Shown here: positions 34,984 to 60,646 of the stretch, one piece after another | How the letters are laid out: each line of letters begins with the position of its first letter | How positions within the stretch are numbered: the first letter of the stretch is position 1 | IMG/VR virus record: IMGVR_UViG_3300031369_000001 | Coordinates: 1-64,000 of that record | Strand: one strand, 5' to 3' | Length of the DNA: 64,000 nucleotides | From: a virus | The notes under the pieces: model-generated | What the model saw: only the letters and a program-made list of their open reading frames with translations | Databases searched by the model: none | Told to the model about the DNA's origin: nothing | Position numbers and translations under genes: made by a program

Positions 34984-35676
34984 ATGCTTCCTGTAACGCA
35001 TATTTTTTCTAGACGGCAAACTTGGCCAGGGCAAGTTCCTAAAAGATTAGACCCTATTTGTTATGGGCCGCAAAGATTAGCGGATTTTGAAAAATTTAAT
35101 CAATGGACGCAGTCCACTGTGTCTACTGCTAAAGATGTGGTAGAGGGGCTAGGATTCCCTATTTCTCAAGAAAAGGAGTGGATAACTTTTCTTCAGACGC
35201 AGATTACTGGTCAAAAAAATGAGTTAGAATTTAGAAAATCAGTAGTTCTGAAGGCCATTTCAGATAATTTAGATCCTTTTTTACGGAATATAATTGGCGT
35301 ACGTGCTATTAAATATTTTCGAAATATGAAAAAAAGTATACCTATTTTTATGTTACGAAAAGCGGTTCCTCGAGGAGGTTCTTACTATAGGAGGGTACCT
35401 AAGAAGAATGGAAATGGTTATAATTATTATTATAATCAAGAAACATACGAGCGAAGTAAGGGGGCACATTTAGGTGGCCCTGATACTGTTTCAGGGTATT
35501 TAGGAAATAAAATAAAAAATATTTTGAGTAATGGGGCGCAAAATCCTGAAGTATTTAAAAACCTTGTAAAAAAACATGGTTTAGATAAGATAGAAAGTGT
35601 GATGACTGAGTTACAAAAGAAAGGAAATTTGAAAATCAGTAAAGGTAAATTTTACTGGGTAGAAAGTGAGGGATAA
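34984..35676 (+). CDS. putative head-associated protein
   Basis: AAGGAGG RBS; four K|[SA] sites (FRKS, VLKA, MKKS, LRKA); LRKAVPRGGSYYRRVPK. Confidence 0.65.
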   Translation: MLPVTHIFSRRQTWPGQVPKRLDPICYGPQRLADFEKFNQWTQSTVSTAKDVVEGLGFPISQEKEWITFLQTQITGQKNELEFRKSVVLKAISDNLDPFLRNIIGVRAIKYFRNMKKSIPIFMLRKAVPRGGSYYRRVPKKNGNGYNYYYNQETYERSKGAHLGGPDTVSGYLGNKIKNILSNGAQNPEVFKNLVKKHGLDKIESVMTELQKKGNLKISKGKFYWVESEG

Positions 35677-35680
35677 TGAA

Positions 35681-35872
35681 ATGGAACTTTTTTGTAAAGT
35701 ATGTGGATCTCCTGTGAATGGAGAATATCTTCGAATTGGTCATTTAGAGCGCAATGTGTATTCGTGTACAAATCGACATTGTGAACGAGCATCATTGCAT
35801 TATCTAAAGGATAATGCCTCCTTGCCTTCTTGGATTCGTCTGAATCTTCAAGAATATAAAAAGGCCAATTAA
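35681..35872 (+). CDS. small zinc-finger protein
   Basis: CKVCG...CTNRHC. Confidence 0.55.
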   Translation: MELFCKVCGSPVNGEYLRIGHLERNVYSCTNRHCERASLHYLKDNASLPSWIRLNLQEYKKAN

Positions 35873-36059
35873 TGGCTAAATCTCCAAGGGTATTTACACA
35901 TTGCCGTTGGGATTGTAATCGAATAGCAATTTTATTTATAGATAAAGAATTGTCTATAGATATTACACTAGAGGAAGCTAAAGAACTTTTTTCTAGCCTT
36001 AGAAAAAGATATAGAAGAGTATTCTTCGAATAAAGATTGAAATAAAAGGAGTATGTTAA

Positions 36060-37334
36060 ATGGAAAAGGCAGTTTGGTCAAATGCGCATATGAATGATTT
36101 GCCGGATAGTGCGTTTCTTTATATTGAATCAGGTGGAAAGAAAGATGAAAGTGGTAAAACGGTACCTCGTTCATTGCGTCATTTTCCTTATAGAGGAATG
36201 GATGGTAAAATTGATTTAGCACATGTAAGGAATGCAATTGCCCGCATTCCTCAATCTAAGTGTGGTTTATCGGAACAACAAAAAGTAGCCTTACAGAATA
36301 GGGCTCGTAAATTATTGGAAGGAAAAAAAGAAATGGAAAAAGCAATGTTTCATATTAATTTGCAAAAAGCTGGTCAAGTTTATTATGGGCCTAAAGGCGG
36401 AAAGTATCGAGATCCACAACATAAAATACCTTGGAGCGATAAAGAATTAAAGTATGGAATGACTAAAGAAGAAGGACATATTCAATCTAGTGTATACAAG
36501 ATACATAATACTGCTTCAGATACAGAAGCGTTAAAATTATTTAAAGAAATTACTGGTACATACGGAAATGATAAGATTAAAGAGGTTATTGCTAAACAGA
36601 ATATTCCTATAAGTTCTGGACTAAAAGATGCCTTAAATTCTTATCGTGGAAGAAAAGATTTTATTAATACTTTACAAAATCATATTAATTGGGTCAAGAA
36701 GTATGGGGCGAAAAGAGATAAAGAAGAATCTTCAAACGTTCATGGAAAAATACTTAAAAGTTTAAATGAAGAAATTGAAATCTTAGAGACTTTTTTAAAG
36801 TCTACAATTGAAGATAGTTCTTTACCTATTATTGGAAAAGGTAAGGAACAAGGAGATCAAACATTAGATGGTAAAGGGAAATCTTCTGGCACTCCTGGTA
36901 GTGGTAGTACTGCCCCTGATAGAGGGGTGACAAAACCATCTGTAAAAAAGTTATCTGAAGATGATGAAGTAGACGAGAAAAATATGAAAGATCATAAGAA
37001 GCCTATTGAGAACACTGCAAGGAAAAGCCTTAATCTTTCTACTCACGCACATGACTATATGGCTAGAGAGGTAGCGTTACGAAAGGCTCAATTGCTTAAA
37101 GAAGATTTGGTTTATATTGAACCAGATGAACCTATTCAAAAGTCTATTGAAAATAAAATAATGACCTCTGATGAAATGGCTGTTCTTTCTATGCAGGATG
37201 AATCTTTTTATAAAGCGCATTTACTGAATCGGCCTTTGTCTGGTATTTCTTTAAGTACTGTTAGCAAGTGTAGACATTGCAGTAATACTTTTAGTAAAGC
37301 AATAACAGTTTGTCCGAATTGTGGTCGTATGTAA
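36060..37334 (+). CDS. multi-segment putative head protein (DUF6582-like N-domain, GPKGG tag, C-terminal Zn ribbon)
   Basis: DLPDSAF...RHFP....D..HVRNAIAR; about ten K|[SA] sites; YYGPKGGKYRDPQHKIPW; directly upstream of portal. Confidence 0.65.
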   Translation: MEKAVWSNAHMNDLPDSAFLYIESGGKKDESGKTVPRSLRHFPYRGMDGKIDLAHVRNAIARIPQSKCGLSEQQKVALQNRARKLLEGKKEMEKAMFHINLQKAGQVYYGPKGGKYRDPQHKIPWSDKELKYGMTKEEGHIQSSVYKIHNTASDTEALKLFKEITGTYGNDKIKEVIAKQNIPISSGLKDALNSYRGRKDFINTLQNHINWVKKYGAKRDKEESSNVHGKILKSLNEEIEILETFLKSTIEDSSLPIIGKGKEQGDQTLDGKGKSSGTPGSGSTAPDRGVTKPSVKKLSEDDEVDEKNMKDHKKPIENTARKSLNLSTHAHDYMAREVALRKAQLLKEDLVYIEPDEPIQKSIENKIMTSDEMAVLSMQDESFYKAHLLNRPLSGISLSTVSKCRHCSNTFSKAITVCPNCGRM

Positions 37335-37351
37335 TATAAAGGATTTTGATT

Positions 37352-38944
37352 ATGGGCATTATTAGTACTTTTCAAGAAATGATGCCTATTGCTACGGATT
37401 TGATAAAAGCTAAACTTGAGCAGTCACGACAAGCAATCAATGTTCAAGCACAACAATTATCTAATCCAGCGCAAAAGGCAGATAATGATCCTAAGTCTAT
37501 TTTCTTTGATCCTTATTCCGTAGTAGAGCAATTTGGCTATAAGGATCGTCCTTCATCTATTACGTATGCTACTTTGTGGAATATCTTTTGTAAGCTTCCA
37601 ATTGTTCAAGCAATTGTATTTTTAAGAATGAATCAAGTAGCGGCTTTTGCTACTCCTCAACAAGATAAATTTTCATTAGGATTTCGAGTAGTATTAAAGG
37701 ATAAGGATAAGAATACTACTAAGCAAGAACAGAGATTCATTGCACAGATGAATAATGTTTTATTAAATACGGGAGTAACAAATAATTCTAGAGGCAGAGA
37801 CAGCTTTAAAACTTTTTTAAAGAAATTAGTATTTGATACCCTTATATATGACCAAATGTGTTTTGAAATAGTTCCTAATAGAAAAGGTCTCCCCGCCGAA
37901 TGGTATGCTACAGATGCAGCTACCATTAGAATTGCAGATAATGGGAATGTATTTAATGATGAAGACAAAACAAAAGAGATCAGATATGTACAGGTATATG
38001 ATGGGGTAGTGATTAACGAATATACCCAATATGAAATGGTATTTGGTGTAAGACACCCTAATACTAATATCAGGCTTCAAGGATATGGGGTAAGTGAATT
38101 AGAATTATTGGTGTCTACAATTACTTCCTTATTGTATGGCCATCAATACAATCAGAAGTTTTTTACACAAGGTTCTAGTGCCAAAGGTATTTTGAATTTT
38201 AAAGGAACAACTAATGCTAAGCAACTTGCTGAATTCAAAAGGCATTGGTACACTTTACTTTCTTCGGTTAATAACGCATGGAAAACTCCTATAACTAATA
38301 CCGAGGGTATCGAATGGGTTAATATGCAGCAGACACATAGGGATATGGAATTTTCTGCGTGGATGGATTTTCTTATTAAAGAAGCTTCTGCTGTATATGC
38401 AACTGATCCAGCAGAAATTAATTTTAATTACGGTAATACTGGTCAATCGAGAGCTTTAGTTGAAAGTTCTTCTGCTGAAAAAATTATAGAAAGTAAAGAG
38501 CGCGGACTACGTCCCTTATTAAATGACGTAGGGGAATTAATTGCCATTCATATAGTGGAACCTATTAACCCTGATTTTACTTTTGAGTTTATGGGGCTTG
38601 ATGCAGAAACAAAAGATAGTGTTGCTAAAAGAAATCAACAAAGAGTTCAAACCTATATTACGGTAAATGAATTAAGGGCTGAAGAAGATAGACCTCCATT
38701 GCCAGATGAACAAGGGGATATTATACTGAATCAGGTTTACATTCAGAACAAACAGCAAACACAAGCAATGCAGCAACAAGAAGAAGGTGATCAAAACGAA
38801 AACGGAATGACACAAGATGAAGAAGGTGATGATGGAAAACAAGATATAAGATCTTTATTATCTAAATATTCTGAGGATGATTTAGTTGATCAAAATGAAG
38901 ATGATGAAGTAAAGAAAAGTTTAGTATTGGATGTAGTTTTATAA
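37352..38944 (+). CDS. portal protein
   Basis: D...YDQ..FE.V, D..TI, GYG.SELE, N..FF.QG...GIL, DMEF..W, DP.EI.F, SK..GL.PLL, T.NE.R, GDII motifs as in SPO1/Twort-like portals. Confidence 0.9.
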   Translation: MGIISTFQEMMPIATDLIKAKLEQSRQAINVQAQQLSNPAQKADNDPKSIFFDPYSVVEQFGYKDRPSSITYATLWNIFCKLPIVQAIVFLRMNQVAAFATPQQDKFSLGFRVVLKDKDKNTTKQEQRFIAQMNNVLLNTGVTNNSRGRDSFKTFLKKLVFDTLIYDQMCFEIVPNRKGLPAEWYATDAATIRIADNGNVFNDEDKTKEIRYVQVYDGVVINEYTQYEMVFGVRHPNTNIRLQGYGVSELELLVSTITSLLYGHQYNQKFFTQGSSAKGILNFKGTTNAKQLAEFKRHWYTLLSSVNNAWKTPITNTEGIEWVNMQQTHRDMEFSAWMDFLIKEASAVYATDPAEINFNYGNTGQSRALVESSSAEKIIESKERGLRPLLNDVGELIAIHIVEPINPDFTFEFMGLDAETKDSVAKRNQQRVQTYITVNELRAEEDRPPLPDEQGDIILNQVYIQNKQQTQAMQQQEEGDQNENGMTQDEEGDDGKQDIRSLLSKYSEDDLVDQNEDDEVKKSLVLDVVL

Positions 38945-39347: not shown

Positions 39348-39349
39348 TT

Positions 39350-40202: not shown

Positions 40203-43200
40203 ATGCACATACAAATAGAAGCAAAGAAGGAAGAACTTTTTTCCAAAAGAGTTTCTTTAGTAAAGTCTATCGCTGATTGCATTGGAGAAGTAGATTCTGA
40301 TTTAAAAAATCGTTTAATAAAAGCGATAGACAATAAAGACAAATTGTTTACTGATCCAGTTTTACTAGAAGTATTGAAGCAATGGGAAATAGGTTATAAA
40401 GACCAAACCAATGCGATGCTTGTTGATATAAGTAAAGTATTGGATAAGGGAAAATTAAATAAGAGTCTTAGTTCTGATCCTTCTTGGATTGGTGTTGATT
40501 TAGATAGGACGTTAGCTGAATATCATGAATATAAAGGCCCTGCTTCTATCGGTAAGCCAATTCCTAGAATGGTTGATAGGGTTAAGGAATGGATTGCTAA
40601 TAATAAAAATGTAAAAATTATGACCGCTAGGGCAAATCCAAATTCTAGCGATTTTAGAGCATCTATTACTGCTATAAAGAAATGGTGCAAAAAATATATT
40701 GGAGAAGAATTACCGGTAGTATACGAAAAAGATCTGCATATGGTTGAACTTTGGGATGACCGAGCTATTCAGATTAAACCTAATACGGGTATTAGGGCAG
40801 ATGGATTAAATAAAAGTGAAGATGAAGGTATTTCATATTTTCATTACGATATAGATACAGATTCCTATATTGAAGACTATAATGAATATTTAAATAAAGC
40901 ACAAAAAGGTCCATTCATTGGTCCACGTGGAGGTAAATGGGCTGATCCAGAACACACCATACCTTGGAAAGAAGAAGTACACAGCTACTCAGAAACTAAA
41001 GACCGATATAGTGATGAAGAAGCTGAACAAATTTTAGATAGAATAGGCGAGGCTTTATATAGTCATCAAGCAATTAATCCTCGTGAAAAAGATGATACTG
41101 GATTTAGTTATGTGGATATGGACAGATGGAGATCTGTAACTGGTGTAAATGCAAAGAGACAATTACTTCAAAAATATAAACGCCAAATAGTCGGTGCTTA
41201 TAGTATTGAAGAATATCATAAATTAGGATTAGCAGATGTAAGAGAAGGTAAGGGATATAAAGCGAACATTAAACCTTATTATAATAAAACTTGGGGAAGC
41301 CTCACCCTTCCGGTAGATGGAAGGGTTGATAGAGATACCTTTAATAAATTTAGAGAGATTAATAGAAAACATAATGTGTGGTTTAGTAATGGCGATAACT
41401 TTATTAAAGAACAATATTTAGATGATTTTGATTTTGAATCTTATAAGAAGGATATGGGGGAAATAGGCATAAAAGTTCACCCAATTAAGGGGGAACGAAA
41501 ACAAAATGTATCTGAAAAAGACGAAAAGGATCTTACTGTAGATGAAGCTTTGCAAAGCATTAAAAATAGAAGGATTAAGGATGCAATTGTTCTTAAGAAA
41601 ATAGGTAAAGATAAATTTGCTTTTTGGTCTACCTATTCTCCAGAATTTAATGATTTGTTTTCTAATAAAACTGGTGGATTGTCCGGTATTTTTTACGCAA
41701 ATAAAGATAATAATTGGGCTAGAGAAACGCATGAATTGAATCTAGTAGAAGAAGCTTTACAACAGATAAAGAAGCAATTGCCTAATTATAAGTTGTATAT
41801 AGATGAAGAAGGTTTGAAAGAAGCACAAAATGAAAAAGCGAGATATCAAGCTGAATTACAAAAGCCAATTCCTGAAGTACAGAAATTATTAGATAGTAAA
41901 TATTCATTATTTCCTTATCAAAATGAAGCAGTGCATTTTTTAGATAAAACAAATGGAAATGCCTTAATTGGGGATTCCATGGGACTTGGAAAAACGCTTG
42001 AAACTTTGGCTTGGTTGGCTAAAGGAAATAAGAAAACAATTTTAGTTGTTCCGAAAGTAGTAAGGCGTACTTGGTTACAAGAAGCAGATAAGTTTTTTCC
42101 AGGGCAGTTTAAAGGAACTGAATTAGTGTCTTCTGATATAAGAAATAATAGAGTTCCAAATTTTAAAGATAAGAACCTTGTAACTGTTAATTATGAATCT
42201 TTAGATAAGTTTTATCCTTATTTAAAGGATGCTGGTTTTGATACAGTAGTAGTTGATGAATCACATAGGATGAAGAATCCTAAAGCTAAACAGACAAAAG
42301 CGATTCAAAAGGTATCGGCATTAGTAAATCATCATATTTTATTGTCTGGAACAGCGGTTAAAAATAAAAAAGAAGAGTTGTTTACCCAGTTAGAAGTTGT
42401 TGCGCCAGGTAAATTTACATCTAAAAATCAAATAAAATTTGCTACTATTGGCGGACTTTGGCGCGATATGAAGGATTTCTATATTGCGAGGAGTAAGGAA
42501 GAAGTTCTAAAAGATTTACCTGAAAAAGTCACTTCTATTATTCAACAAGACATACCTAATTTACCTGATTATGGTGCAAATAAAGATATTGGGGATATTG
42601 CTAAAATTAAAGCTTCTGTAGCAATTGGAAAAGTTCCTGCTACTATTGATTTGGCTAAAGAGATACTAGGTTCTTCTGATTCAAAGATAATTGTGTTTAC
42701 TGATTCAGTTGAGGCAGCTAAAAAGATTCATGAAGAATTAGGTGATATTTCTTTATTGCACCATGGGCAAATGAGCGATGATAAAAGGGAAGCGGTAAAG
42801 GAAGAATTTCAAAAAACAGATGGTAATGGTGATTTCATTTCTCCTAAACGGGTATTCGTAACTACTCGTCAGTCAATGGCTGTAGGAGCTACTTTAACCG
42901 CTGCTGATAAAGTCATTTTTAATGACTTACCTTGGACTGCTGCTGATTTACGACAAGCAGAGGATAGAGCACATAGAATTGGGCAAAAGAACAACGTAAA
43001 TGTTTATTGGGTCACTGCTTCGAATAATTTATTTGATTCTTCAGTTACGGAGATAATTAAAAGGAAATATGAATTATCTAAAAAAGTAAATCAGGGAAAG
43101 AAGCTGACGCAAGAAGAAATTGCATGGATGAATAAGCCGTTAACGGTTAGTGATATATTGAATAAAATACATGGAGGTAAAACGCCTATAGAAGAAGAAA

Positions 43201-45011
43201 AACAATTGCTGATTAAAGAAAATAAACCTGAAGTTCCTGTTATTCCGATAGAAGTACCTAAACAAGAAGAAGAGCAGAAGCCTAAATTTATTATGCAAGA
43301 ACCTGTAAAAGTTAAAGAATCTAAAGATATAATAGATATAAAAAAAGATATTAAAGAAACACAAAATAAGATTGATAAATTAAGAGATAGACAATTAAAA
43401 GATTGGCAATCTGGATCTATAACTCGTAAAAGGACAACTACATATAATGCTGAAATAAGTCGACATAATGATAGGATACAAGAATTAAAAAAGCTTTTAA
43501 ACAAATATGAAGAAAATATTAGTGTAATACAAGAAAAAGAACCTGTAAAAGTTGAAACACAAGAACCTGTTAAAAAGAAACGTGGAAGGCCTCTTGGTTC
43601 TAAAAACATTAAAAGAGTTGCTATTCCTCCAATGGTTATCCAAGAACCTGAAAAAAAGAAAAGAGGGAGACCTCCTGGTTCTAAAAACAAAATGACTCGA
43701 GTTGCTATTAAAGAAGTAACACCTCCTACATTTAAACGAGAAGCTATAAAAGAGGAACCTGTTAAACAAGGTAGGGGAAGGCCACCAAAGCCACAAAGTG
43801 TAAAAGAAGCGGAATCTAGTTTAGCTTACGTTTCTGCTAAGAATATAAAACTTAAAAAAGTTGCTTCTGATGACGTTCACGATGTCTATCAAACTAATTT
43901 TTCTATAGACGTAGATGACGCCAAAATAGCTATGAATAATTTACGTGAGCAAGGTATCAATGCAACGGTGCTAGAAGGAGATCCAGGAATAGTTAAAATA
44001 AGAAAAGGTTTTATAATTAGTGAATCTGATTTATATAAAGCCTTATTCATAGGACCTAAAGGTGGTAAATGGGCAAATGCTGAACATACCATACCTTATC
44101 AAGAAGATATAGTTCGAAAACCTGTTAAGCGAGAACCACCTGGTTCACAGTTAGCAATTGACGTACAAAATAAATTAAAAGAATTGAAAGTAGACAAATT
44201 ACCTCAATCTACTATTCCAATTTCAGACATTAGAATTGATTTAACAGGTAATGTTGATACAAAAGCAATCATTACTTGGAAAGATACTAAAGGAAAAGTC
44301 CAAAGTGGTTATACTCCAAAATTCCATGAAATAAATGCTAAGGAAAAATGGGATAGAATTAATAAATTTAGAAGTAAGAAAAAAGAAATTGTAAATACAT
44401 TAAATGAAAAATTGATTAAGGGGAAACCCGGTAGTATTGACCACCAAGGTTATACTATATTAGCCATTATTGCAGAAACAGGATTACGTCCAGGTAGTAC
44501 TGAAAGTGTTAGAAAGCATGGTCATTACGGTATAAGTACTTTAAAAAAGGATCACATTGCTTTAAATAATAAAATGGCTGTTTTAAATTTTATTGGCAAA
44601 GAAGGAAAGAAGAATGTTACAGTGATTCAAAATCCTGTTACGTTAAAAGCTTTAGAGTATTACGTAAGCAATGCTACCGAAAATGGTAGTATATTTAATT
44701 CCAATGCTTTGGATACTGGTAAAACCATACTTCCTAAAGGAATGAAGGTGAAAGACCTTAGAACAATTAAGGCCACCGAATCAGCGGAAAGATTATTAAA
44801 AGAAGTTGACACTCCTCCTCCATTAACCGGAGATAGTAAAAAGGATAAACGATTATTAGCAAAGGCATTGTTGGAAACAAGTAAAAAAGTGGCTACAATA
44901 TTGAATAATACTCCTAGTATTGCAAAGGCTAGTTATATCCATCCAATGGTATTTGAACAATGGGCAAAAAGTGTAGGAGCATCTGAAAAACTTTGGAAAG
45001 AGGTAGGTTAA
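40203..45011 (+). CDS. polyvalent protein: HAD phosphatase + SNF2/SWI2 ATPase + 3 AT-hooks + type IB topoisomerase
   Basis: HAD WIGVDLDRTL...TAR...K...WDDRA. SNF2 LFPYQ, MGLGKT, DESH, LSGT, G.TLT.A, QAEDRAHRIGQ. AT-hooks RGRP x3. TopIB GLRPG, YG..TL, F.GK.G, KDLRT, NTP..A..SYIHP. Confidence 0.9.
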   Translation: MHIQIEAKKEELFSKRVSLVKSIADCIGEVDSDLKNRLIKAIDNKDKLFTDPVLLEVLKQWEIGYKDQTNAMLVDISKVLDKGKLNKSLSSDPSWIGVDLDRTLAEYHEYKGPASIGKPIPRMVDRVKEWIANNKNVKIMTARANPNSSDFRASITAIKKWCKKYIGEELPVVYEKDLHMVELWDDRAIQIKPNTGIRADGLNKSEDEGISYFHYDIDTDSYIEDYNEYLNKAQKGPFIGPRGGKWADPEHTIPWKEEVHSYSETKDRYSDEEAEQILDRIGEALYSHQAINPREKDDTGFSYVDMDRWRSVTGVNAKRQLLQKYKRQIVGAYSIEEYHKLGLADVREGKGYKANIKPYYNKTWGSLTLPVDGRVDRDTFNKFREINRKHNVWFSNGDNFIKEQYLDDFDFESYKKDMGEIGIKVHPIKGERKQNVSEKDEKDLTVDEALQSIKNRRIKDAIVLKKIGKDKFAFWSTYSPEFNDLFSNKTGGLSGIFYANKDNNWARETHELNLVEEALQQIKKQLPNYKLYIDEEGLKEAQNEKARYQAELQKPIPEVQKLLDSKYSLFPYQNEAVHFLDKTNGNALIGDSMGLGKTLETLAWLAKGNKKTILVVPKVVRRTWLQEADKFFPGQFKGTELVSSDIRNNRVPNFKDKNLVTVNYESLDKFYPYLKDAGFDTVVVDESHRMKNPKAKQTKAIQKVSALVNHHILLSGTAVKNKKEELFTQLEVVAPGKFTSKNQIKFATIGGLWRDMKDFYIARSKEEVLKDLPEKVTSIIQQDIPNLPDYGANKDIGDIAKIKASVAIGKVPATIDLAKEILGSSDSKIIVFTDSVEAAKKIHEELGDISLLHHGQMSDDKREAVKEEFQKTDGNGDFISPKRVFVTTRQSMAVGATLTAADKVIFNDLPWTAADLRQAEDRAHRIGQKNNVNVYWVTASNNLFDSSVTEIIKRKYELSKKVNQGKKLTQEEIAWMNKPLTVSDILNKIHGGKTPIEEEKQLLIKENKPEVPVIPIEVPKQEEEQKPKFIMQEPVKVKESKDIIDIKKDIKETQNKIDKLRDRQLKDWQSGSITRKRTTTYNAEISRHNDRIQELKKLLNKYEENISVIQEKEPVKVETQEPVKKKRGRPLGSKNIKRVAIPPMVIQEPEKKKRGRPPGSKNKMTRVAIKEVTPPTFKREAIKEEPVKQGRGRPPKPQSVKEAESSLAYVSAKNIKLKKVASDDVHDVYQTNFSIDVDDAKIAMNNLREQGINATVLEGDPGIVKIRKGFIISESDLYKALFIGPKGGKWANAEHTIPYQEDIVRKPVKREPPGSQLAIDVQNKLKELKVDKLPQSTIPISDIRIDLTGNVDTKAIITWKDTKGKVQSGYTPKFHEINAKEKWDRINKFRSKKKEIVNTLNEKLIKGKPGSIDHQGYTILAIIAETGLRPGSTESVRKHGHYGISTLKKDHIALNNKMAVLNFIGKEGKKNVTVIQNPVTLKALEYYVSNATENGSIFNSNALDTGKTILPKGMKVKDLRTIKATESAERLLKEVDTPPPLTGDSKKDKRLLAKALLETSKKVATILNNTPSIAKASYIHPMVFEQWAKSVGASEKLWKEVG
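40914..40979 (+). repeat. tag repeat A, copy 1 (FIGPRGGKWADPEHTIPWKEEV)
   Basis: 63/66 identical to 49529-49594. Confidence 0.95.
44032..44104 (+). repeat. tag repeat B, copy 1 (YKALFIGPKGGKWANAEHTIPYQ)
   Basis: 73/73 identical to 48465-48537. Confidence 0.95.
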
Positions 45012-46582: not shown

Positions 46583-47132
46583 AATTCCTATACAGCGATG
46601 GACTGAATTACGAATGCAATATGCATTAACTAGGAAAAATAATCTTTTTGACTTTGGAAGATATGCAGTTGTTCCGAATATTGGTTGGGGGTTAGGACTT
46701 AATCACGAACCTGATTTATTGTGTTTATCTAAAACTGGGATATTTCATGAAGTAGAGATTAAAGTAACTATGGCTGATTTGAAAACAGATAAAGATAAGT
46801 GGCATAATCATTATTCTAGATTTGTTAAACACCTATGGTTTGCTATTCCAGACATTTTATCTATAGATAAGGTTTTAAGCGAAATTCCTGATTATGCTGG
46901 ATTAGTTCAAGTGAGTACTTATTACAATGAATATCCATATAATCAAAAATATTCAAGACAAAAGTATTTAACTCATATAATTAGAAAACCTAGACCAAAA
47001 TTACGAAAAGGGTTGTTTACCGACCCTAAACAAGACACTATTATAAAATTTTTAAGGATTGGAGTTTTGCGAATGTGGACAGATACCTATAGGTTTAAAC
47101 ATTTTGACCGACAAGTAATATTAAAGGGGTGA
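46575..47132 (+). CDS. MmcB-like PD-(D/E)XK nuclease-family protein
   Basis: EPDLL....G...EVEIK....DL..D..K...WFA.P......IP..AGL. Confidence 0.7.
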   Translation: MNRIPIQRWTELRMQYALTRKNNLFDFGRYAVVPNIGWGLGLNHEPDLLCLSKTGIFHEVEIKVTMADLKTDKDKWHNHYSRFVKHLWFAIPDILSIDKVLSEIPDYAGLVQVSTYYNEYPYNQKYSRQKYLTHIIRKPRPKLRKGLFTDPKQDTIIKFLRIGVLRMWTDTYRFKHFDRQVILKG

Positions 47133-50100
47133 TTATTATGCCGTTAACTCCTGATCAAATATTAGAAATCCAAGATATAATTGAATTACATCATAATGCA
47201 TTTATAGCTAATACAATTGGTCATGATGCGTTACCTGATGAAGTAATTGATGAATTACGAGATAAAGGATTATTGAATAAAGAATCTAAAGACCTTATTA
47301 AGAAGATATATGAATACGGTCAAGTGCTTGGTAAATTGAATAGTCCCCAAGCTTCACAGATGTCCTATAATAGATTTGAAGATTATATTCAAAAAAATCC
47401 ACAACCGTTAACGCAAATGCAACAACGAGCTGTTCGTATGGCCCAAGTGAATGCCGGTCAGTATTGTATGGGATTAGGAAATATAATTGAAAAAGATACG
47501 GGAAGAACTTTAATAGAAGCAGATCAAAGATTTAGAATTGCATATGAGGATAAAATAAAAAATCTTACTGCTTTAAATGCTGCAAGAAGAGAGAGTATTG
47601 AAAAGCTTAGAAGTGATTTAGGTTGGTCTACAGGGGATTGGGCTAGGGATATGAAACGAATTGCTGTAACTGAAATAATGTATTCAACGCAGCAAGGACA
47701 AGCGGATTACCTTAGAAAGAAATATGGAGAAGATGTTTTTGTTGCACGTATTCCTAATCCAGGGGCGTGTAAGCATTGTATTCGTTTACATATTGGTCCA
47801 GATGGGCAGCCTAGAATATTTAAATTATCTACTTTAGAGGAACATGGTAGTAACGTAGGACGAAAACAAAATGATTGGCAAGCTGTAGTTGGCCCAGTTC
47901 ATCCTAATTGTGTATGCAACATGATTAGTGTTCCAAAGGGATGGGGATTCAATGAAGAAGGAGACTTGCTTCCAGGAGGTAAGTTAGGGGAAATATATTA
48001 TGAACCAGAAGAATTAGAAAGGGCTTTAATTGAAGAAAATCTTTTTTATAAATCTTTAAAGGCTAAGGTTAATATAGTTTTCCAAGGAATTCCTATTGTT
48101 ATTGAAACTCCAAAAGGAGATAAGCGAAAATGGATTAATGGAGATGGTTCGATAGGGGAAACCATTATGCAGGAAGCTTCTTATGGATTCGTAAAAAATA
48201 CTACTTCTATGGATGAAGAAGAATTAGATGTATTCGTTGGACCATTTAAAGATTCACCTGTAGTTTATATAATTGATCAAAAGAATCCGGATAATGAACT
48301 ATATGATGAACAGAAATGTATGCTTGGTTTTCGAAATGAAGAACATGCATTAAATGTATATAGAATGAATTACGATAATCCAGATAAATTTATTTATGAC
48401 TGTAGTTCGATGGATATAGAAGCCTTTAAGAGATGGTGTGGGATAGGTATTATTCGAGAAGAAATATATAAAGCCTTATTCATAGGACCTAAAGGTGGTA
48501 AATGGGCAAATGCTGAACATACCATACCTTATCAAGATCCTAGTTTAGCAATGAGAAATAAAGCTAGTAATTTTTATGATGGATTGATTAGTTGGGTAAA
48601 GGATAATAAAGATAATTTACAATTTGATTCAAATGGAAATGTTTATATACAGGCAAATCAATTTACAAATGATAAAAATTTATCGCATTTACATATACTG
48701 ATTACTCCTAAAGGAGTTTTTAGAGGCAATGGTATTGGTAAAACTAGTGATGGGAAAGATGTATTAGTGTTAACTAATTTAAGAAATCCATATGATACTA
48801 CTTATTTAGACACTAGAATAACTAGTAGAGTTATTATACACGAAATATCTCATTATCTTAATGCTGGATACGATAAAGTTCATAATATAGTAACTGAGCA
48901 TGGTAAAGAATATTATAATCAATCTGTCGAATTTGATGCATTTTGGAATGAAGGTGCTGGGGAATTGGAAAGATTTATTCGTAATTTTAAAGACACAAAT
49001 CAACATCATATATTTGAAAGGATAGTAGGAAATTCTCCTGATTTTAAGTACTTTAATAGTAAAGTAAAATCTTTTTGGGATAAAACCTTTTTGAATAGTT
49101 TAACAGAAGCTAATAAGAAAAAATTTGATAAAAGATTATATAGATTATGGGATGATTTAAAAAGCAATATCTATAAATCTAATTACGATTTATCCCCTGG
49201 TCCAGGTTCTGGATTGAATTTCTTTTTAGGTACTAATGTAAATAAACCGAATAGTGGAGGAACTATTCGATATAAAGAAGTATTGGAATTAGGTAAAGAG
49301 GAATTAGAAAAACGTAAAAAGCAAAAAGGTAATAAAGGTATTTACGGGGATATAGAGGATTATCAATTTGGCGAAAACATTATACCGGTTAAAGAATTGA
49401 TAATTCCTGAGACCGTAAAAGAGTCTAAGAAAGAAGCACGGAAGAAAAATAAGGATGTGAATAAATTTGTACTTACTAGAAGATTAAAATGGAAAAAAGG
49501 AAATGTAAATAATTTAAATAAATCATTGTTCATTGGTCCACGTGGAGGTAAATGGGCTGATTCAGAACATACTATACCTTGGAAAGAAGAAGTATCAACA
49601 AATGGTAAATTTGTTGATACTAACGATAGTGCTTTAAGTAACGTATTGGCGGAATTGTTGGGAAAAAATATTCATTTAGAAAAAGTTAGGGAAACAGATA
49701 AAGAGTTGTTTTATAGAGGGGGTAAGGAGTTACTTATTGGTGCTAAGAAGCTAATTAATGCTTTAAAAAATAAAGGATTTAAGGTAGAAATAATTCCGCA
49801 AGGAAAGAACCTTCCTATAGTTGTTTTGAATAAGCCAATAAAAAAAGAACCAATAAAGAAAGAACCAATAAAGAAAGAACCAATAAAGAAAGAACCAATA
49901 AAGAAAGAACCAATAAAGCTATCCAGTGATGAAGTTATAAAACAAGATAAAGTTTTAAAGGATAAAAAGATTTTTAACAAATTAAGTAGTGATTATGTTA
50001 ATAGGATTAATAATATTTACAAAGTATTAAAAGACGATAAAGATTTTAAATACTTTGTAAAATCTATTGGTCATACTAATGTAAAAGATACTATTGAATA

Positions 50101-50683
50101 CTTAATTAATAAATGGAATGAGACAGGAAGTGACCATGATATACATTTAATTATTTTACAAAAAGCTGCGATGGATGAGTTTGGATTGGATAGTGGGACG
50201 ATTAAACATTTTGATAAGAAGTTATTAAATAAGGTACATAAAATACCTAAAACTGTTATGGGGGCAAGAAAATTTATAAGAGCGCAGTATAGTCTTACAC
50301 AAGAATATCTAAAAAAACAGGGGATATCGGAAATTATTCTGTTTAGAGGAATGCAACTTAAAAAGATTAAAAGTGATGGTAGGTCTAAAGAGATTGAAGT
50401 TACTTCCCAACCTCTATCTTCTTGGTCTACTTCTTTTTCAGAGGCTAAAGATTTTTCTGTAAGGGGGGCAGTTGGTAGTTCTTCTTTTTCTAGTGTTTTA
50501 TTGTCTAAAAAAGTTCCTATAGAACAAATATTTTCTATACCAAAGGTTGGTATAGGTGAAAGTGATGAACAAGAATGCGTTTTACTTGGAAATAAGAAAG
50601 ATCCTGAAAAAGTGATTTCTTTAGCTGCTGATTATCATTATATGTATAATATTAATGTAAAACAATTATATGGAGAAAAGTAA
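47129..50683 (+). CDS. MuF (head morphogenesis) polyvalent protein: MuF + InPase-like + zincin + C-terminal ADP-ribosyltransferase
   Basis: MuF RIA.TE, ACKHC, PVHPNCVC. InPase IETPKG..R, YG, D.EELDVFVG, DQ, DEQK..LGF. Zincin HEISH..Y....E..A. ART LFRG, PLSSWSTS..A..F, EQE.V. Confidence 0.85.
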   Translation: MIIMPLTPDQILEIQDIIELHHNAFIANTIGHDALPDEVIDELRDKGLLNKESKDLIKKIYEYGQVLGKLNSPQASQMSYNRFEDYIQKNPQPLTQMQQRAVRMAQVNAGQYCMGLGNIIEKDTGRTLIEADQRFRIAYEDKIKNLTALNAARRESIEKLRSDLGWSTGDWARDMKRIAVTEIMYSTQQGQADYLRKKYGEDVFVARIPNPGACKHCIRLHIGPDGQPRIFKLSTLEEHGSNVGRKQNDWQAVVGPVHPNCVCNMISVPKGWGFNEEGDLLPGGKLGEIYYEPEELERALIEENLFYKSLKAKVNIVFQGIPIVIETPKGDKRKWINGDGSIGETIMQEASYGFVKNTTSMDEEELDVFVGPFKDSPVVYIIDQKNPDNELYDEQKCMLGFRNEEHALNVYRMNYDNPDKFIYDCSSMDIEAFKRWCGIGIIREEIYKALFIGPKGGKWANAEHTIPYQDPSLAMRNKASNFYDGLISWVKDNKDNLQFDSNGNVYIQANQFTNDKNLSHLHILITPKGVFRGNGIGKTSDGKDVLVLTNLRNPYDTTYLDTRITSRVIIHEISHYLNAGYDKVHNIVTEHGKEYYNQSVEFDAFWNEGAGELERFIRNFKDTNQHHIFERIVGNSPDFKYFNSKVKSFWDKTFLNSLTEANKKKFDKRLYRLWDDLKSNIYKSNYDLSPGPGSGLNFFLGTNVNKPNSGGTIRYKEVLELGKEELEKRKKQKGNKGIYGDIEDYQFGENIIPVKELIIPETVKESKKEARKKNKDVNKFVLTRRLKWKKGNVNNLNKSLFIGPRGGKWADSEHTIPWKEEVSTNGKFVDTNDSALSNVLAELLGKNIHLEKVRETDKELFYRGGKELLIGAKKLINALKNKGFKVEIIPQGKNLPIVVLNKPIKKEPIKKEPIKKEPIKKEPIKKEPIKLSSDEVIKQDKVLKDKKIFNKLSSDYVNRINNIYKVLKDDKDFKYFVKSIGHTNVKDTIEYLINKWNETGSDHDIHLIILQKAAMDEFGLDSGTIKHFDKKLLNKVHKIPKTVMGARKFIRAQYSLTQEYLKKQGISEIILFRGMQLKKIKSDGRSKEIEVTSQPLSSWSTSFSEAKDFSVRGAVGSSSFSSVLLSKKVPIEQIFSIPKVGIGESDEQECVLLGNKKDPEKVISLAADYHYMYNINVKQLYGEK
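48465..48537 (+). repeat. tag repeat B, copy 2
   Basis: 73/73 identical to 44032-44104. Confidence 0.95.
49529..49594 (+). repeat. tag repeat A, copy 2
   Basis: 63/66 identical to 40914-40979. Confidence 0.95.
49835..49918 (+). repeat. 15-bp tandem repeat CCAATAAAGAAAGAA x5.6 (PIKKE)
   Basis: Read directly; linker before the ART domain. Confidence 0.95.
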
Positions 50684-51860: not shown

Positions 51861-51863
51861 GAA

Positions 51864-52214: not shown

Positions 52215-52476
52215 TTACCTGCTTCTCCTTGAAAAATGTTTTGATTTGGTTTTGGATTTGTTTACGATATTGTCCCCATGAATGGAAACAACCGTTTGCC
52301 CATTTTCTATTGGTAACTAGGTTGTCAATTATTATATTGGGATACGATCCTTTTTTTGGCCTACGGTTACTATATAGGACCATTTGATCTTTATAGATAA
52401 CTGTATATCGATATCTTTCTATATCTGGTGCCAGTAAGACATCGTATATGATGTCATTCATTGATCTTCTAGACAT
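52207..52476 (-). CDS. hypothetical protein
   Basis: AAGGA RBS before MSRRSM; ORF track starts at 52533. Confidence 0.6.
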   Translation of the reverse strand: MSRRSMNDIIYDVLLAPDIERYRYTVIYKDQMVLYSNRRPKKGSYPNIIIDNLVTNRKWANGCFHSWGQYRKQIQNQIKTFFKEKQVND

Positions 52477-52489
52477 GATTGTTTTGTCC

Positions 52490-52723
52490 TTATTTTGGGA
52501 TATTGAATTTAATGTAATCTTTATGAAATACACCTACACTATACCGTAAACTATCTAATGCTCGTTGGTAGGAAAGATCATAATTTGCTGGACGTATATT
52601 ACTAGTGTCATATAGGTATATAGCGTCTGCTAATGCTATTCTGGCAGATGATTCCATTTCTGGGAGCATTGCGATATGTTTTCGACAGGCGATGAATAAT
52701 TTTTGTATATTACGTTTTTTCAT
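52490..52723 (-). CDS. hypothetical protein, first gene after leftward sigma-54 promoter
   Basis: AAGGAGG RBS before MKKRN; SSAR..L.DA...RA..SL.YSVG..H.DY pattern. Confidence 0.7.
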   Translation of the reverse strand: MKKRNIQKLFIACRKHIAMLPEMESSARIALADAIYLYDTSNIRPANYDLSYQRALDSLRYSVGVFHKDYIKFNIPK

Positions 52724-52750
52724 TTTAATGGCCTCCTTACCTATAAACCT

Positions 52751-52767
52751 ATGCGAATAGTGTGCCA
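52751..52767 (-). promoter_or_regulatory. sigma-54-type -24/-12 promoter (leftward)
   Basis: Reverse complement TGGCAC-ACTAT-TCGCAT, GG-N10-GC. Confidence 0.7.
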
Positions 52768-52769
52768 AA

Positions 52770-57530: not shown

Positions 57531-58322
57531 ATGCCTCAAGAAATTCCTACAAATGATTTTAGACTTTCTGTAGGAGAAGCTTCTTTTTTTACAAAAGCTT
57601 CAGCTCCCGAAGGACAACAACGTCGAATAGGTGGTGTTGTTTCTACAGAAACTCCGGATAGACAAGAAGAAACTCTTATTCAAAATGGTTTAGATTTTTC
57701 TGAATTTGTAAAATATGGTTGGTTTAATGACAACCATTCTAATCCTAAAGTGAGTCATACCTGTAATTTAGTAGGGTATCCTGAGTTAACTGAACGTTTT
57801 CAAAAAGGTGATAGGTTGCCTGATGGAAAAATTGCAAAAGCAGATTGTCATTGGGCAGAGGGGTATTTGTTAGAAGGTTATTCACCTGCTGATGAATTGT
57901 GGAATCTTGCCTGTGCCTTAAATAAGACCCCCCGTAGATTGGGTTTTTCAGTTGAAGGTAAAATTCAACGAAGAGATCCATTAAATAAGTCTACTGTTAC
58001 AAAGGCAATTGTTAGAGAAGTAGCAATTACAAAAGCCCCTGTTAATACAGATACACAATTAAATATATTAGCAAAGGCTCTTTCTATGGGTACTTCTATT
58101 CCAGGCAATTCTGTCGATGGAGATAAAACCGGGGAAAATGCTGGGCAAGTTCTTGCTCAGGAATCCTTAGAGAAGAAAAAGAAAAAGAATTTAAAAAAAG
58201 GTTTAACGGATAGTCAAGCGTTTGCTTGGTTATCTAATCATTTACCCAATATATCCCCTGAATTAAAAGGGAGAATAATCTCGTTGACTCGGGATTTAAA
58301 ATTGCAAAATAAATTGCATTAA
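57531..58322 (+). CDS. prohead (maturation) protease
   Basis: IGG..ST...D.Q.E....GLD...F...G.FNDNH, LGFSVEG, VAIT..PVN..T; SPO1/Twort-like; two genes before the MCP. Confidence 0.88.
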   Translation: MPQEIPTNDFRLSVGEASFFTKASAPEGQQRRIGGVVSTETPDRQEETLIQNGLDFSEFVKYGWFNDNHSNPKVSHTCNLVGYPELTERFQKGDRLPDGKIAKADCHWAEGYLLEGYSPADELWNLACALNKTPRRLGFSVEGKIQRRDPLNKSTVTKAIVREVAITKAPVNTDTQLNILAKALSMGTSIPGNSVDGDKTGENAGQVLAQESLEKKKKKNLKKGLTDSQAFAWLSNHLPNISPELKGRIISLTRDLKLQNKLH

Positions 58323-58338: not shown

Positions 58339-59157
58339 ATGAAAAGACAGCCAATGCAAAATGATGATGAGATGAAGAACAAGAAAGATCAGATGGATGA
58401 GGATAACGAAGATTCTCAAATGGAAGAAGAAGAAAAGTCTTGCGGTACTAAGAAATCACAAGACCTAACCGAAGATGACCTCAGTAAAGCTGTTGAGGTA
58501 TTAAATGATTATGTCAATACGACTGATCCAAATTCTCGAAAAGAGACTTTATTGAAAAAAGCAATGACTGATGATCTTTCTTCTGAAGAGATGAATGAAC
58601 TATTTAAATCTTTAAGTGGTTCTGAAAATTCAAATACGGAAGAAGTTAATGATTTTTCTGATTCTGTTCTTAATTCATTAGAATCTGATACTATTCAGAA
58701 ATCATTAGATGTTTCTGATTATTTAACAGAATTGCATAGTGGATTAGTTAAATCGCTTAGTACGTTAGAAGGAGAATTAAATAGTAATGCTATGCGTCAG
58801 CATACATTTAATATTACTCTTGCTAAGAGCATGGTTTCTGTTGTTACTGGGTTACAGCGTACAATGAATGTTATTTCTGAATTAAAAAAATCTATGGACA
58901 ATTATAGTGAAGCCCCTATTAGAAAGCCAACATCTGTTCAACCTTTAAACAAAGCTTTTGTTGGACACAATGGGCAAGAAGGGCAGTCTTTAAAGAAATC
59001 TGAAATGATGGGACAATTACTCTATCTTGCAGAGCAAGGAGTTGATAACATTGGGGGAGTTAGTGTAAATCATGCGGTTGCTTTACTGGAAAGTAGCAAT
59101 CAATTACCTAATCAAGTTGTTAGTGCTTTAAAAGCTAGACAAGGAGCTACTGCTTAA
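58339..59157 (+). CDS. scaffold-like head assembly protein
   Basis: Acidic/helical, between protease and MCP, about 12 K|[SA] sites. Confidence 0.7.
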   Translation: MKRQPMQNDDEMKNKKDQMDEDNEDSQMEEEEKSCGTKKSQDLTEDDLSKAVEVLNDYVNTTDPNSRKETLLKKAMTDDLSSEEMNELFKSLSGSENSNTEEVNDFSDSVLNSLESDTIQKSLDVSDYLTELHSGLVKSLSTLEGELNSNAMRQHTFNITLAKSMVSVVTGLQRTMNVISELKKSMDNYSEAPIRKPTSVQPLNKAFVGHNGQEGQSLKKSEMMGQLLYLAEQGVDNIGGVSVNHAVALLESSNQLPNQVVSALKARQGATA

Positions 59158-59158
59158 T

Positions 59159-59196
59159 AATGAGGGCAGAGCTTATATATAATTGTGCCCTCATTG
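59159..59196 (+). other. stem-loop before MCP RBS (AATGAGGGCA / TGCCCTCATT)
   Basis: 10-bp perfect stem; possible processing or stabilising hairpin. Confidence 0.55.
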
Positions 59197-59215
59197 GGCT
59201 TAAAAGGAGTTAAAA

Positions 59216-60646
59216 ATGTTAGAGAACATGGTTAGTTTTTCAGATTATGATGGCATCGAGGGATATGGAAGTGTTCAGCAGCAAGAAGTAGTTGACTTGA
59301 ATAAAGCTTTAACTGCTGGACAAGATATAGCGGCGCCTACTGTTGCTGCTGGAGAAGGCTTTCCTTTACGGGTTGAGTCTTTAGAGAATACCTTAAAAAC
59401 GGTTACCTTTACGGCAAAAGAAATTGTTTTTTGGAAAGCTATTCCCAAAATCCCTGCATACAATACGGTGGAAGAGCATAATCAGATTTCGAATTATGGA
59501 TCTAATGAGGATTCTGGATTCATTCCGGAAGGTGCGCTTCCTGAAAGTGATGATTCTACTTATGCGCGAAAGTACGCGGTGGTAAAGTTTTTAGGTACTA
59601 CTCGATCTGTAACTCATGTAATGAGTCTCGTTCGGCCAGCGCATGGTAACGTTATCGCCAATGAAACCGTTAATGGAACATTGCATTTACTTCGTATTTT
59701 GGAAAAAGCTCTTTATTACGCGGATTCTTCTTTATCTGCTGTTCAATTTGATGGCTTTAATAAGCTAATTACGGATAATGCAGATTCTGATCATGTATTA
59801 GATTTAAGAGGAGCGCCTCTTACCGAGGATATTTTATCGGACGCAGTAGCTACTGTTAGAACTTCTTATGGATTTCCTACTCATCTTCATTTAAACCATA
59901 AGACTAAGTCGGAATTAACTAAGACATTTTTCCCCAAAGAGCGACATAATACTTTTACTGATAATAGTGGTATTATTGGTAATAACATTACTGGGTTTAC
60001 TTCTGAATCAGGTATCGTTCAATTTGTAAGTAATACTTTTCTTACTGGTAACACTGCTTCTTATAATTCCGCAGCAATTGGGGACGCAACTAAAATCCCT
60101 GGAACACCTACTATCAGTACTTCATTAGCTGCTTCTGGTACGGCAGCTCCGTTATGGACTGCGGATGATGCTGGGAGCTATTATTGGACTGTCGTTGCGT
60201 GCAATCGTTATGGGAGGTCAGCTCCAGTGGACGCAAATGAGGCCGGAGGTGCTTTTGCCGTTGCCACTACGCAAACAGTTACTTTTGGTGTAACACCGTC
60301 AACTACTGGAGGTGCCGGGGCTACTGAATGGTACGAAATTTATCGTACTAAAAAGGGTGGGGCGGATGGTACGGAGAAATTAATTCAACGTATCGTGAAC
60401 TCTAATACTACAAGTGAACAAACAATTACGGATTTGAATGCAAGTCTCCCGGACACTACCAATGCCTTTTTACTTCAGCAGAATATTGATAGTCTTTCAT
60501 TTAAACAATTAGCTCCGATGGTTAAAATCCCATTAGCGACTATTGCGACAGCCGTTCGTTGGTGTCAGGTTCTTTATGGGGTTCCTGTGCTTTATGCCCC
60601 GAATAAGAATTTCTTATTTAAGAATGTGGGAAAGAATAACTACTAA
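59216..60646 (+). CDS. major capsid protein
   Basis: LNK|ALTAG, LRVESL...L, E......D....R.....KF, FDG..KL, V.DLRG..L, P..K.PLA...YG...L.AP; SPO1/Twort-like pattern. Confidence 0.92.
   Translation: MLENMVSFSDYDGIEGYGSVQQQEVVDLNKALTAGQDIAAPTVAAGEGFPLRVESLENTLKTVTFTAKEIVFWKAIPKIPAYNTVEEHNQISNYGSNEDSGFIPEGALPESDDSTYARKYAVVKFLGTTRSVTHVMSLVRPAHGNVIANETVNGTLHLLRILEKALYYADSSLSAVQFDGFNKLITDNADSDHVLDLRGAPLTEDILSDAVATVRTSYGFPTHLHLNHKTKSELTKTFFPKERHNTFTDNSGIIGNNITGFTSESGIVQFVSNTFLTGNTASYNSAAIGDATKIPGTPTISTSLAASGTAAPLWTADDAGSYYWTVVACNRYGRSAPVDANEAGGAFAVATTQTVTFGVTPSTTGGAGATEWYEIYRTKKGGADGTEKLIQRIVNSNTTSEQTITDLNASLPDTTNAFLLQQNIDSLSFKQLAPMVKIPLATIATAVRWCQVLYGVPVLYAPNKNFLFKNVGKNNY

Follow-up and report, generated by a model that had tools for sequence, protein, structure and literature searches.

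In phage T4, the internal head proteins IPI-III and Alt, an ADP-ribosyltransferase (ART), carry a capsid targeting sequence that is removed by the prohead protease gp21 (in part PMC9026906, PMC9024508). The prohead protease of the giant phages phiKZ, 201phi2-1 and SPN3US cuts many internal head proteins, including ejection and inner-body proteins, at a three-residue motif (PMC10052503). For polyvalent proteins, which combine several domains in one chain, processing was assigned by Iyer, Burroughs, Anand, de Souza and Aravind in 2017 mainly to embedded zincin metallopeptidases; assemblin-like peptidases are mentioned there only when fused at the C-terminus, no junction motif is described, and the word 'linker' is absent (PMC5512222). 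Here we describe two very long proteins, giant1 and giant2, encoded in the head-gene block of an uncultured phage, and the recurrent sites at their domain junctions. These sites follow the pattern h-x-K|[ASG] (h, hydrophobic residue; |, putative cut), which is also that of the predicted maturation site of the major capsid protein (MCP), and half of them are followed by a conserved peptide of about 22 residues, hereafter the tag. We consider cutting of the giants at these sites by the prohead protease to be the best reading of the comparative evidence, a probable though by no means secure one.

The window analyzed is a stretch of 64,000 nucleotides (IMG/VR record IMGVR_UViG_3300031369_000001, positions 1 to 64,000), the left-hand portion of one phage contig of 102.6 kb, in which nearly all genes are on the plus strand. 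Coordinates below are window positions, and features lie on the plus strand unless stated otherwise. Annotation with Pfam and PHROGs places the head module at 34984-60646. Judged from its sequence, the module is distantly SPO1-like, and megablast of a 20-kb region found no cultured phage close at the DNA level. The closest relative, L001 (IMGVR_UViG_3300042731_006804), is a complete 103-kb genome with terminal repeats.

Junction sites and a shared tag in giant1 and giant2

Each giant joins at least two biochemically unrelated effector domains in one chain. Giant1 (40203..45011; 1602 amino acids, aa) consists of a leader (aa 1-87), a HAD-like domain (aa 93-200), a spacer, a tag, a SNF2 helicase with three AT-hooks and a small domain, a second tag, and a type IB topoisomerase (TopIB). 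Giant2 (47129..50683; 1184 aa) runs from a MuF-like domain (aa 1-290) through an InPase domain (aa 313-440), a tag, an HExxH region (aa 472-680), a PGPG motif with a basic spacer, a second tag and PIKKE repeats to an ART-like C-terminus.

A first-pass annotation, made from the letters and reading frames alone, had named most of these domains. Pfam recovers its SNF2 helicase (SNF2-rel_dom, Helicase_C), TopIB (Topoisom_I), InPase (PF18823, E 4e-30) and portal, PHROGs recovers its protease, scaffold and MCP, and the three AT-hooks are present as RGRP motifs. Its HAD and MuF calls have gained support, the former from phrog_1238/415 and a DLDRT motif, the latter from phrog_115 'minor head protein' (E 7e-4) and from tblastn matches (29-32% identity, 275 aa) to genes of SPO1-like phages annotated 'minor capsid protein'. 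The MuF region has no Pfam match at E<5, and a Cys-x2-Cys…His…Cys-x-Cys pattern within it is conserved in 16 homologs. The zincin and ART modules of giant2, on the other hand, are weakly identified. The zincin call stems from HEISH at aa 571, between two tags, together with weak WLM, SprT and LPD23 hints, and the ART call from a series of motifs (R-STS-EQE) together with a lead in the Atlas that points to DRAT/ART clusters at 0.91; a Pfam scan of the window's giant2 gave neither an ART-PolyVal nor an MPTase-PolyVal match. The 'at least six separate enzymes' proposed earlier are thus a count of predicted modules that includes these two.

All eight giant sites quoted in that annotation exist, as does DLNK|ALTAG in the MCP, with the bonds now corrected to K87|S, K204|S, K232|A and K1279|A in giant1 and K308|S, K448|A, K683|S and K798|S in giant2. 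In giant1, LNK87|S (40455..40466) ends the leader; it is conserved in nine orthologs and reads TRK|S in the distant locus L025. LNK204|S (40806..40817) follows the HAD-like domain and is retained as GLNK[SG] in eight of nine orthologs, and the HAD homolog of L025 has RADGLKK|S at the corresponding place, followed by a charged spacer and then by a site with a tag. At LNK232|A, which precedes tag copy 1 (aa 233-258; 40890..40976; match of 90.7 bits to tag profile A2), P2 is N or M among orthologs while P3, P1 and P1' are fixed (P3 to P1 precede the predicted bond and P1' follows it). LYK1279|A and tag copy 2 (aa 1280-1302; 44031..44108; 81.3 bits) stand before TopIB, with Y, R, Q, T or L at P2 in the orthologs.

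The first junction of giant2, FYK308|S (48044..48055), has no tag and lies in a helix that runs from MuF to InPase. In 11 of 12 MuF-InPase homologs (25-41% identity) it is retained as E-x-x-L-x-K-[SAG], P2 being free, and MuF-only open reading frames (ORFs) end just upstream of a K308-type site. IYK448|A, which is INKA in the L001 ortholog, is followed by tag copy 3 (aa 449-470; 48464..48538; 83.5 bits), and LNK798|S by tag copy 4 (aa 799-821; 49514..49591; 84.3 bits) before the ART-like module. For IYK683|S (49169..49180), conservation was seen in close orthologs only. An AlphaFold 2 (AF2) model of giant2 gives a predicted local distance difference test score (pLDDT) of 75-92 for MuF and InPase and places K308 in the interdomain helix. 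The tag region at aa 440-480 scores <50, suggesting that this stretch is probably flexible. The HExxH and ART regions also score <50, with a shallow alignment, and their folds are not confirmed by the model.

Other sequence elements were noted in the two chains. The giant1 leader (aa 1-88; 40203-40466) appears as a helical domain of about 85 residues with three conserved h-x-K-[SA] motifs, including K87|S at its end, and leaders of this type head unrelated polyvalent proteins in L025, L061 and L076. From its sequence, it is a candidate cleavable targeting propeptide that would be chopped up. In giant2, the motif PGPGxGxN[YF][LF] (aa 685-710; 49181-49260) directly follows IYK683|S and recurs in six other proteins of the clade, usually downstream of InPase. 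Five tandem P-I-K-K-E repeats (aa ~900-929; 49826-49915) lie between the spacer of the last tag and the ART-like domain.

The tag, which was absent from the first-pass annotation, is the strongest part of the signal. Its consensus is [FY]-I-G-P-[KR]-G-G-K-[WY]-x-[DN]-x-x-H-[TK]-I-P-[WY], and it follows four of the eight giant sites and one site of ORF36060 (LQK103|A with tag copy 5; 36360-36440; 71.2 bits). These five copies are all that the genome holds, and all are in head-block genes. A search with the tag profile through a word index retrieved 244 proteins, with scores of up to 241 bits reflecting several copies per protein, and an exhaustive HMMER scan of 1.84 billion sequences found the tag in 757 representative proteins, of which 258 reach E<=1e-10. 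Tag carriers are long and differ widely in their domains, which include ART-PolyVal, InPase, Zeta toxin, SAM lyase, DarA_C, DdrB-ParB, LPD1, GGDEF, GNAT, PAPS reductase, Tyr phosphatase, TopIB, SNF2 and inteins.

The site accompanies the tag throughout this set. K-[ASG] occurs 5-10 residues upstream in 262 of 281 tag copies from 120 diverse proteins (93%, against ~3% by chance); P3 is L, F, I, M or V in 250 of these 262, P2 is essentially free, and P1' is A in 153, G in 83 and S in 26. Tags fall between known Pfam domains, never inside them; the domains flanked in this way comprise ART-PolyVal, InPase, Zeta toxin, SAM lyase, DarA_C, GGDEF and LPD1. Across 70 viral tag loci, the tag is at least 108 residues from the C-terminus and the spacing between tags is at least 120 residues (median 368). 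Moreover, 17 of 74 tagged ORFs open with a leader of 7-25 residues that ends in a site and is followed by the tag, and these leaders are short and not conserved in sequence. The spacing and the short-leader ORFs together imply that the unit is 'site + tag + module', which can be chained or free-standing.

The tag appears to be uncatalogued. No Pfam match was obtained at E<=10, a profile search of the PDB returned none, and there is no Pfam or NCBIfam model. A literature search found no paper with the strings GPRGGKW, IGPRGG, GPKGGKW or GPRGGRW, and tblastn with a 33-aa tag retrieved nothing at E<=1 from 50,697 cultured-phage records. The tag is also missing from Chryseobacterium phage MA9V-3, whose genome measures 103 kb and encodes a similar MuF. 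One copy (49487-49624) gave a 14.6-bit NCBIfam match to the C-terminal tail of the gyrase inhibitor YacG; this link is probably due to chance, as the cut-off is 83 bits and the tag profile did not recover YacG from the PDB. Tag matches were also noted inside long bacterial contigs from metagenome-assembled genomes (L084, L086; CAWAEN010000015.1, 469 kb; CP070713.1, 3.5 Mb; Acidimicrobiia, Myxococcales), which suggests prophages or other integrated forms and thus possible host clues. Contigs with the tag are likewise assigned to metagenome-assembled genomes of Lentisphaeria and Sedimentisphaerales. A beta-strand-like R-F-V-[IV]-P-L-x-K stands ahead of many sites (e.g. P0004, P0005, P0007 and L029:7960-10137).

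Two further ORFs of the block share these features. ORF36060 (36060..37334; 424 aa), a probable internal head protein, comprises an N-domain, tag copy 5, a site-rich region and a C-terminal zinc ribbon; its L001 homolog has an apparent start directly at M-N-K-A followed by the tag. ORF34984 (34984..35676; 230 aa) has LRK126|A and then a type-2 tag (35353-35439). This second tag type (aa 124-152), [PA]-RGG-x-Y-x-[RK]R[VI]P…G-x-Y-x-Y-x-Y, occurs in 15 distinct proteins of the clade, 14 of them with h-x-K-[AGS] upstream, and has an RGG-x-[YW]…[IV]P skeleton in common with the main tag.

Capsid maturation site and prohead protease

The MCP (59216..60646; phrog_752, E 2e-90) has a SPO1-like HK97 fold and is ~37% identical to the MCPs of SPO1-like Herelleviridae. 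Its maturation site is predicted at L28-N-K30|A31 (59297-59308) from alignment to SPO1 gp6.1 and to the phi812-type MCP. SPO1 gp6.1 (PDB 9vel) aligns over the full length with E 6e-80, and its ALNKALEAG stands opposite DLNKALTAG of the window. A literature search for an experimentally determined N-terminus of the SPO1, Twort or A511 MCP yielded nothing usable, and PDB chain lengths therefore served to define the mature start. The staphylococcal phi812-type MCP has 463 residues at full length (5lii), compared with 439 in the deposited chains (9row, 9rox, 9roz); the 439-residue chain starts at S25, right after D-V-V-K24, opposite K30|A31 of our MCP given the alignment offset. At this position, h-x-K|[AS]-x-x-x-G is found without exception in 13 MCPs (29-58% identity) from related uncultured phages. 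With the motif invariant across the clade, it has no variation that could covary with the tag site.

The same motif is concentrated in the proteins that surround capsid assembly. The scaffolding protein (58339..59157; phrog_15087) holds nine h-x-K|[SA] sites, one per 15-30 residues, where 1.0 is expected, and none of 2000 shuffles reaches nine; the density reported earlier is thus real, the count being nine rather than about 12 with [LIFMVY]xK[SA]. In all ten related loci, the ORF in the scaffold position has 6-12 sites against 0.5-1.6 expected, so that the excess is 7-14-fold in the window and its ten relatives. The portal (37346..38944; PF04860, phrog_12) has LIK21|A (37400-37411) and VKK524|S (38909-38920), and among 30 homologs an N-terminal h-x-K-[AG] is found at aa 21-36 and the C-terminal site in most. 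With the pattern [LIFMVY]xK[SA], the motif is also present, as first described, in the protease (6), portal (2), ORF34984 (4) and ORF36060 (9). Taken together, the sites in the MCP, scaffold, protease and portal would represent the usual imprint of prohead protease specificity.

To place these counts in context, [LIFMV]-x-K-[SA] was compared with composition-preserving shuffles for all ORFs of the 102.6-kb genome. Enrichment is highest in four ORFs, namely ORF36060 (9 observed, 1.8 expected), the protease (6 and 0.8), the scaffold (9 and 1.0) and ORF34984 (4 and 0.6). Narrowing the pattern to its strict form, the LNK[SA] of the MCP, leaves eight matches in 32,753 aa, of which seven fall in the MCP, scaffold, protease and giants.

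The prohead protease (57531..58322; phrog_1028, E 6e-30) contains two conserved sites of its own, FTK22|A (57588-57599) and LAK182|A (58068-58079). LAK182|A lies at the border between the catalytic domain and a disordered linker. K22, L180 and K182 are nearly invariant in 16 homologs, and the candidate catalytic residues H69 and S140, like S38 and E142, are invariant in them, as judged without superposition on a known active site. In the AF2 model, pLDDT exceeds 90 for aa 30-180 and falls below 50 for aa 182-220, such that at K182 the confident catalytic domain yields to the linker and a C-terminal two-helix tail. Foldseek returned as best matches the assemblins of Kaposi's sarcoma-associated herpesvirus (KSHV), human cytomegalovirus (HCMV), pseudorabies virus (PrV), Epstein-Barr virus (EBV) and herpes simplex virus (HSV) together with T4 gp21 (prob 0.9-1.0, TM 0.3-0.46), and the modelled catalytic domain is thus of the assemblin fold.

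The part of the protease after LAK182|A (58080-58322) resembles the N-arm of the MCP past the cut (59306-59400), with AL-x-AG-x-D-I…PG…GEGFPLR-x-ESLE in common. When run on five other genomes, the protease profile also matches the N-terminus of the MCP gene, though less strongly. This C-terminal part may imitate the MCP so that the protease is built into the shell along with it.

The cutting enzyme and rival explanations

Two enzymes come into consideration for cutting the giants, the free-standing prohead protease and a zincin-like metallopeptidase embedded in giant2. Following the proposal of Iyer et al. (PMC5512222), the latter would act on polyvalent proteins either in cis or in trans, and the HEISH motif between two tags, with its weak family hints, is in line with that published hypothesis. 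Among five tag-bearing genomes that are 91-100% complete, however, the prohead protease is present in all five (E 1e-67 to 1e-100), whereas neither an MPTase-PolyVal match (PF18818) above the cut-off nor any homolog of the HExxH region of giant2 turned up in them. Across the 70 loci, phmmer matched this region in close relatives only, and giant1 and ORF36060 carry tags but no peptidase domain. Because the prohead protease co-occurs with the tag while the zincin does not, and because the junction motif is that of the MCP, scaffold and portal, sites attributed to an assemblin-type protease, we favor the prohead protease and regard processing by the zincin as quite improbable.

Several points weigh against the prohead protease as the cutter of the giants. 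Neither giant is enriched in the motif overall (giant1, 8 vs 6.2 expected; giant2, 6 vs 3.7), and thus only the placement of the sites, and the strict motif, stands out. The highest enrichment lies in the four head-block ORFs given above and not in the giants as wholes; the eight quoted sites do lie at junctions, but six of the 14 loose matches in the giants are inside folded domains, e.g. TopIB and the leader. A test for site avoidance outside the tags of tag-bearing proteins revealed none (observed/expected 1.44; reversed motif, 1.35) and was uninformative. The K-[ASG] before the tag could be a structural part of it rather than a scissile bond. In addition, the mature start of the phi812-type MCP was taken from deposited chain length and not from a stated N-terminal sequence, and the exclusion of the zincin used one Pfam metallopeptidase model and one sequence. 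Motifs, statistics, conservation and tag-protease co-occurrence are what we observe; from them we infer packaging, cleavage, the enzyme responsible, ejection and a binding partner of the tag. The assignment of the junctions to the prohead protease, as first suggested, therefore draws its strength from the comparative evidence of MCP, scaffold, portal, tags and co-occurring protease, and not from global enrichment in the giants.

Polyvalent proteins might also be packaged and delivered intact, K-[ASG] and tag then serving as an uncleaved flexible linker or as a docking peptide for capsid, DNA or a host target. P1 DarB and the virion RNA polymerase (vRNAP) of N4, which are packaged at full length (PMC5512222; PMC9024508), provide precedents, and the predicted flexibility of the tag region, the indirect nature of the case for cleavage and the lack of a global motif excess in the giants agree with it. 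Intact delivery would, however, leave unexplained why the residues upstream of the tag resemble the MCP site with a free P2 and variable spacing, why stand-alone tagged ORFs keep a short leader and a site, and why the same motif is conserved at untagged junctions; we therefore consider it unlikely, though not far-fetched. A further thought is that the giants are ordinary early or late cytoplasmic enzymes which happen to lie within the head-gene block, neither packaged nor cut. What points to their virion association is indeed gene context, between portal and protease, together with the MuF fusion. Yet giant2 starts with a MuF-type minor head protein domain, InPase, ART, DarA_C and LPD are hallmarks of virion-borne polyvalent proteins (PMC5512222), and tags are confined to the head module across the 70 loci, all of which makes a purely cytoplasmic role very improbable.

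The tags could finally be mainly DNA-level recombination joints for module shuffling, the peptide itself having no function. Two pairs of tag-coding DNA bear on this: 44031-44099 in giant1 and 48464-48532 in giant2 are identical over 69 nucleotides, and 40899-40976 in giant1 and 49523-49591 in giant2 share 85% identity, the two pairs being in opposite order in the two genes. This suggests that giant1 and giant2 exchanged tag DNA recently. Module order also varies, with TopIB, InPase, HAD and leader occurring in varying combinations in other phages and the breaks always falling at sites and tags; the giant2 ortholog of L001 (10010-12394; 794 aa) ends exactly before LNK798|S and is without the ART-like module. 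The tag is, however, kept across loci of 32-71% GC, 757 proteins keep its residues, and identical residues are written with different codons at 6-7 of 15 positions between tag copy types, implying selection at the level of the peptide. We thus read recombination at these places rather as a consequence, and probably a by-product, and a function as joints alone seems scarcely credible.

If the prohead protease is the cutter, we picture the following course. The assemblin-fold protease would cut after Lys in hydrophobic-x-K|[A/S/G]. The giants, ORF36060 and ORF34984 would be head-internal cargo, recruited via the MuF domain, the N-terminal leader and/or the tags, and then cut at the junction sites with removal of leader and spacer peptides. 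Giant1 would release a HAD phosphatase, a SNF2 helicase with AT-hooks and TopIB, and giant2 would release MuF, InPase, the HExxH module and the ART-like module. Most freed modules would start with the tag, as (A/S/G)-x0-3-[FY]-I-G-P-[KR]-G-G-K-[WY]-x-D-x-x-H-T-I-P-[WY], and would enter the host together with the DNA, there to act against its defences and initiate infection. The tag itself is most likely a docking peptide, which would either bind the scaffold or the capsid interior or else serve the protease as an exosite. Roles after cleavage, during ejection or in the host are alternatives.

A broader proposal is more tentative, and we hold it to be somewhat less than evenly likely: that in a large clade of ~100-kb uncultured phages spanning 32-71% GC, 'h-x-K|[ASG] + tag' is a modular cargo address by which enzymes are loaded, freed and injected, the modules being swapped at the tags. 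The tag would then be the new N-terminus of each freed enzyme, and the arrangement would be the dsDNA-phage equivalent of an RNA-virus polyprotein to which a cargo peptide of the encapsulin sort has been added. Should cutting by the capsid-maturation protease at such tagged sites be confirmed, the mature cargo enzymes could be read from sequence alone, the shuffling of SAM lyase, DarA-like domains, ARTs, Zeta toxin, GGDEF and TopIB modules would be explained, and a short peptide cassette would be at hand for loading heterologous proteins into phage capsids.

Neighboring genes and comparison with known systems

The head block begins with ORF34984, ORF36060 and the portal, continues with three small ORFs, giant1, a DHH phosphoesterase, an MmcB-like nuclease and giant2, and, after a short minus-strand cluster and small ORFs, ends with the prohead protease, scaffold and MCP. 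The cluster, six small ORFs at 51082-52768 on the minus strand, is a break in the plus-strand head region between the giant2 and protease genes.

With the SPO1-like Herelleviridae, this block shares homologous MCP, protease, portal and MuF-type minor head proteins and a common K|[AS] site in the MCP. The MuF proteins of Herelleviridae, in contrast, are short and without enzyme fusion, and the tag was not found in the cultured-phage records searched above. Encapsulin cargo-loading peptides are usually C-terminal and not linked to proteolysis. The likeness of the tag to them is one of working only, without homology: a conserved short peptide, carried by diverse enzymes, could direct them to the inside of an HK97-fold shell.

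T4 offers an analogy for processing, with head-internal, ejected cargo, an assemblin-fold protease, and the same motif on cargo as on capsid and scaffold, cutting of the cargo being predicted in our case. In T4, however, each protein is cut once, at L/I-x-E|, and loses the targeting peptide, which is on the N-terminal side of the cut. In the giants, several cuts per chain are predicted at h-x-K|[ASG], and the conserved peptide, unlike a T4-type capsid targeting sequence, is on the C-terminal side of the predicted cut and would be kept.

The phiKZ-type giant phages are similar in that propeptides are chopped at multiple sites and the protease sheds its own C-terminal propeptide (PMC10052503). 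They differ in using an A-x-E-type motif on single-function substrates that lose N-terminal propeptides, and no multi-enzyme polyprotein or shared tag has been reported for them (PMC10052503). The Dar system of P1 (DarB, DdrB, DarA, Hdf, Ulx) resembles the present one in having a very large, helicase-containing anti-restriction protein that is packaged into the head via a short N-terminal signal (PMC9024508), and DarA_C and DdrB-ParB domains are present in tag-bearing proteins. DarB, however, is uncut and has a 30-residue N-terminal signal with no consensus among Dar proteins, and the P1 MCP is cut at E120|S121 (PMC9024508).

Polyvalent proteins are similar in composition, combining InPase, ART, helicase, MuF and other domains in one chain in a head context, with predicted co-delivery with DNA and proteolytic release (PMC5512222). 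Of their signature domains, Pfam finds InPase in giant2, and ART-PolyVal, LPD1 and DarA_C in tag-bearing relatives. These proteins are thought to be a major anti-defence arsenal of phages, and the published guess for the release of their domains is self-processing by the embedded zincin. The giants differ in that their junctions carry the site of a free-standing prohead protease together with the tag, the zincin being absent from all five complete tag-bearing genomes. This locus and its several hundred tagged relatives thus present a concrete and testable alternative, with the capsid-maturation protease as cutter, an MCP-type site and a portable tag. In comparison with the systems described so far, ejected polyvalent head proteins and processing by a prohead protease are of a known kind, and what is new here is the uncatalogued, widespread tag and a defined junction code.

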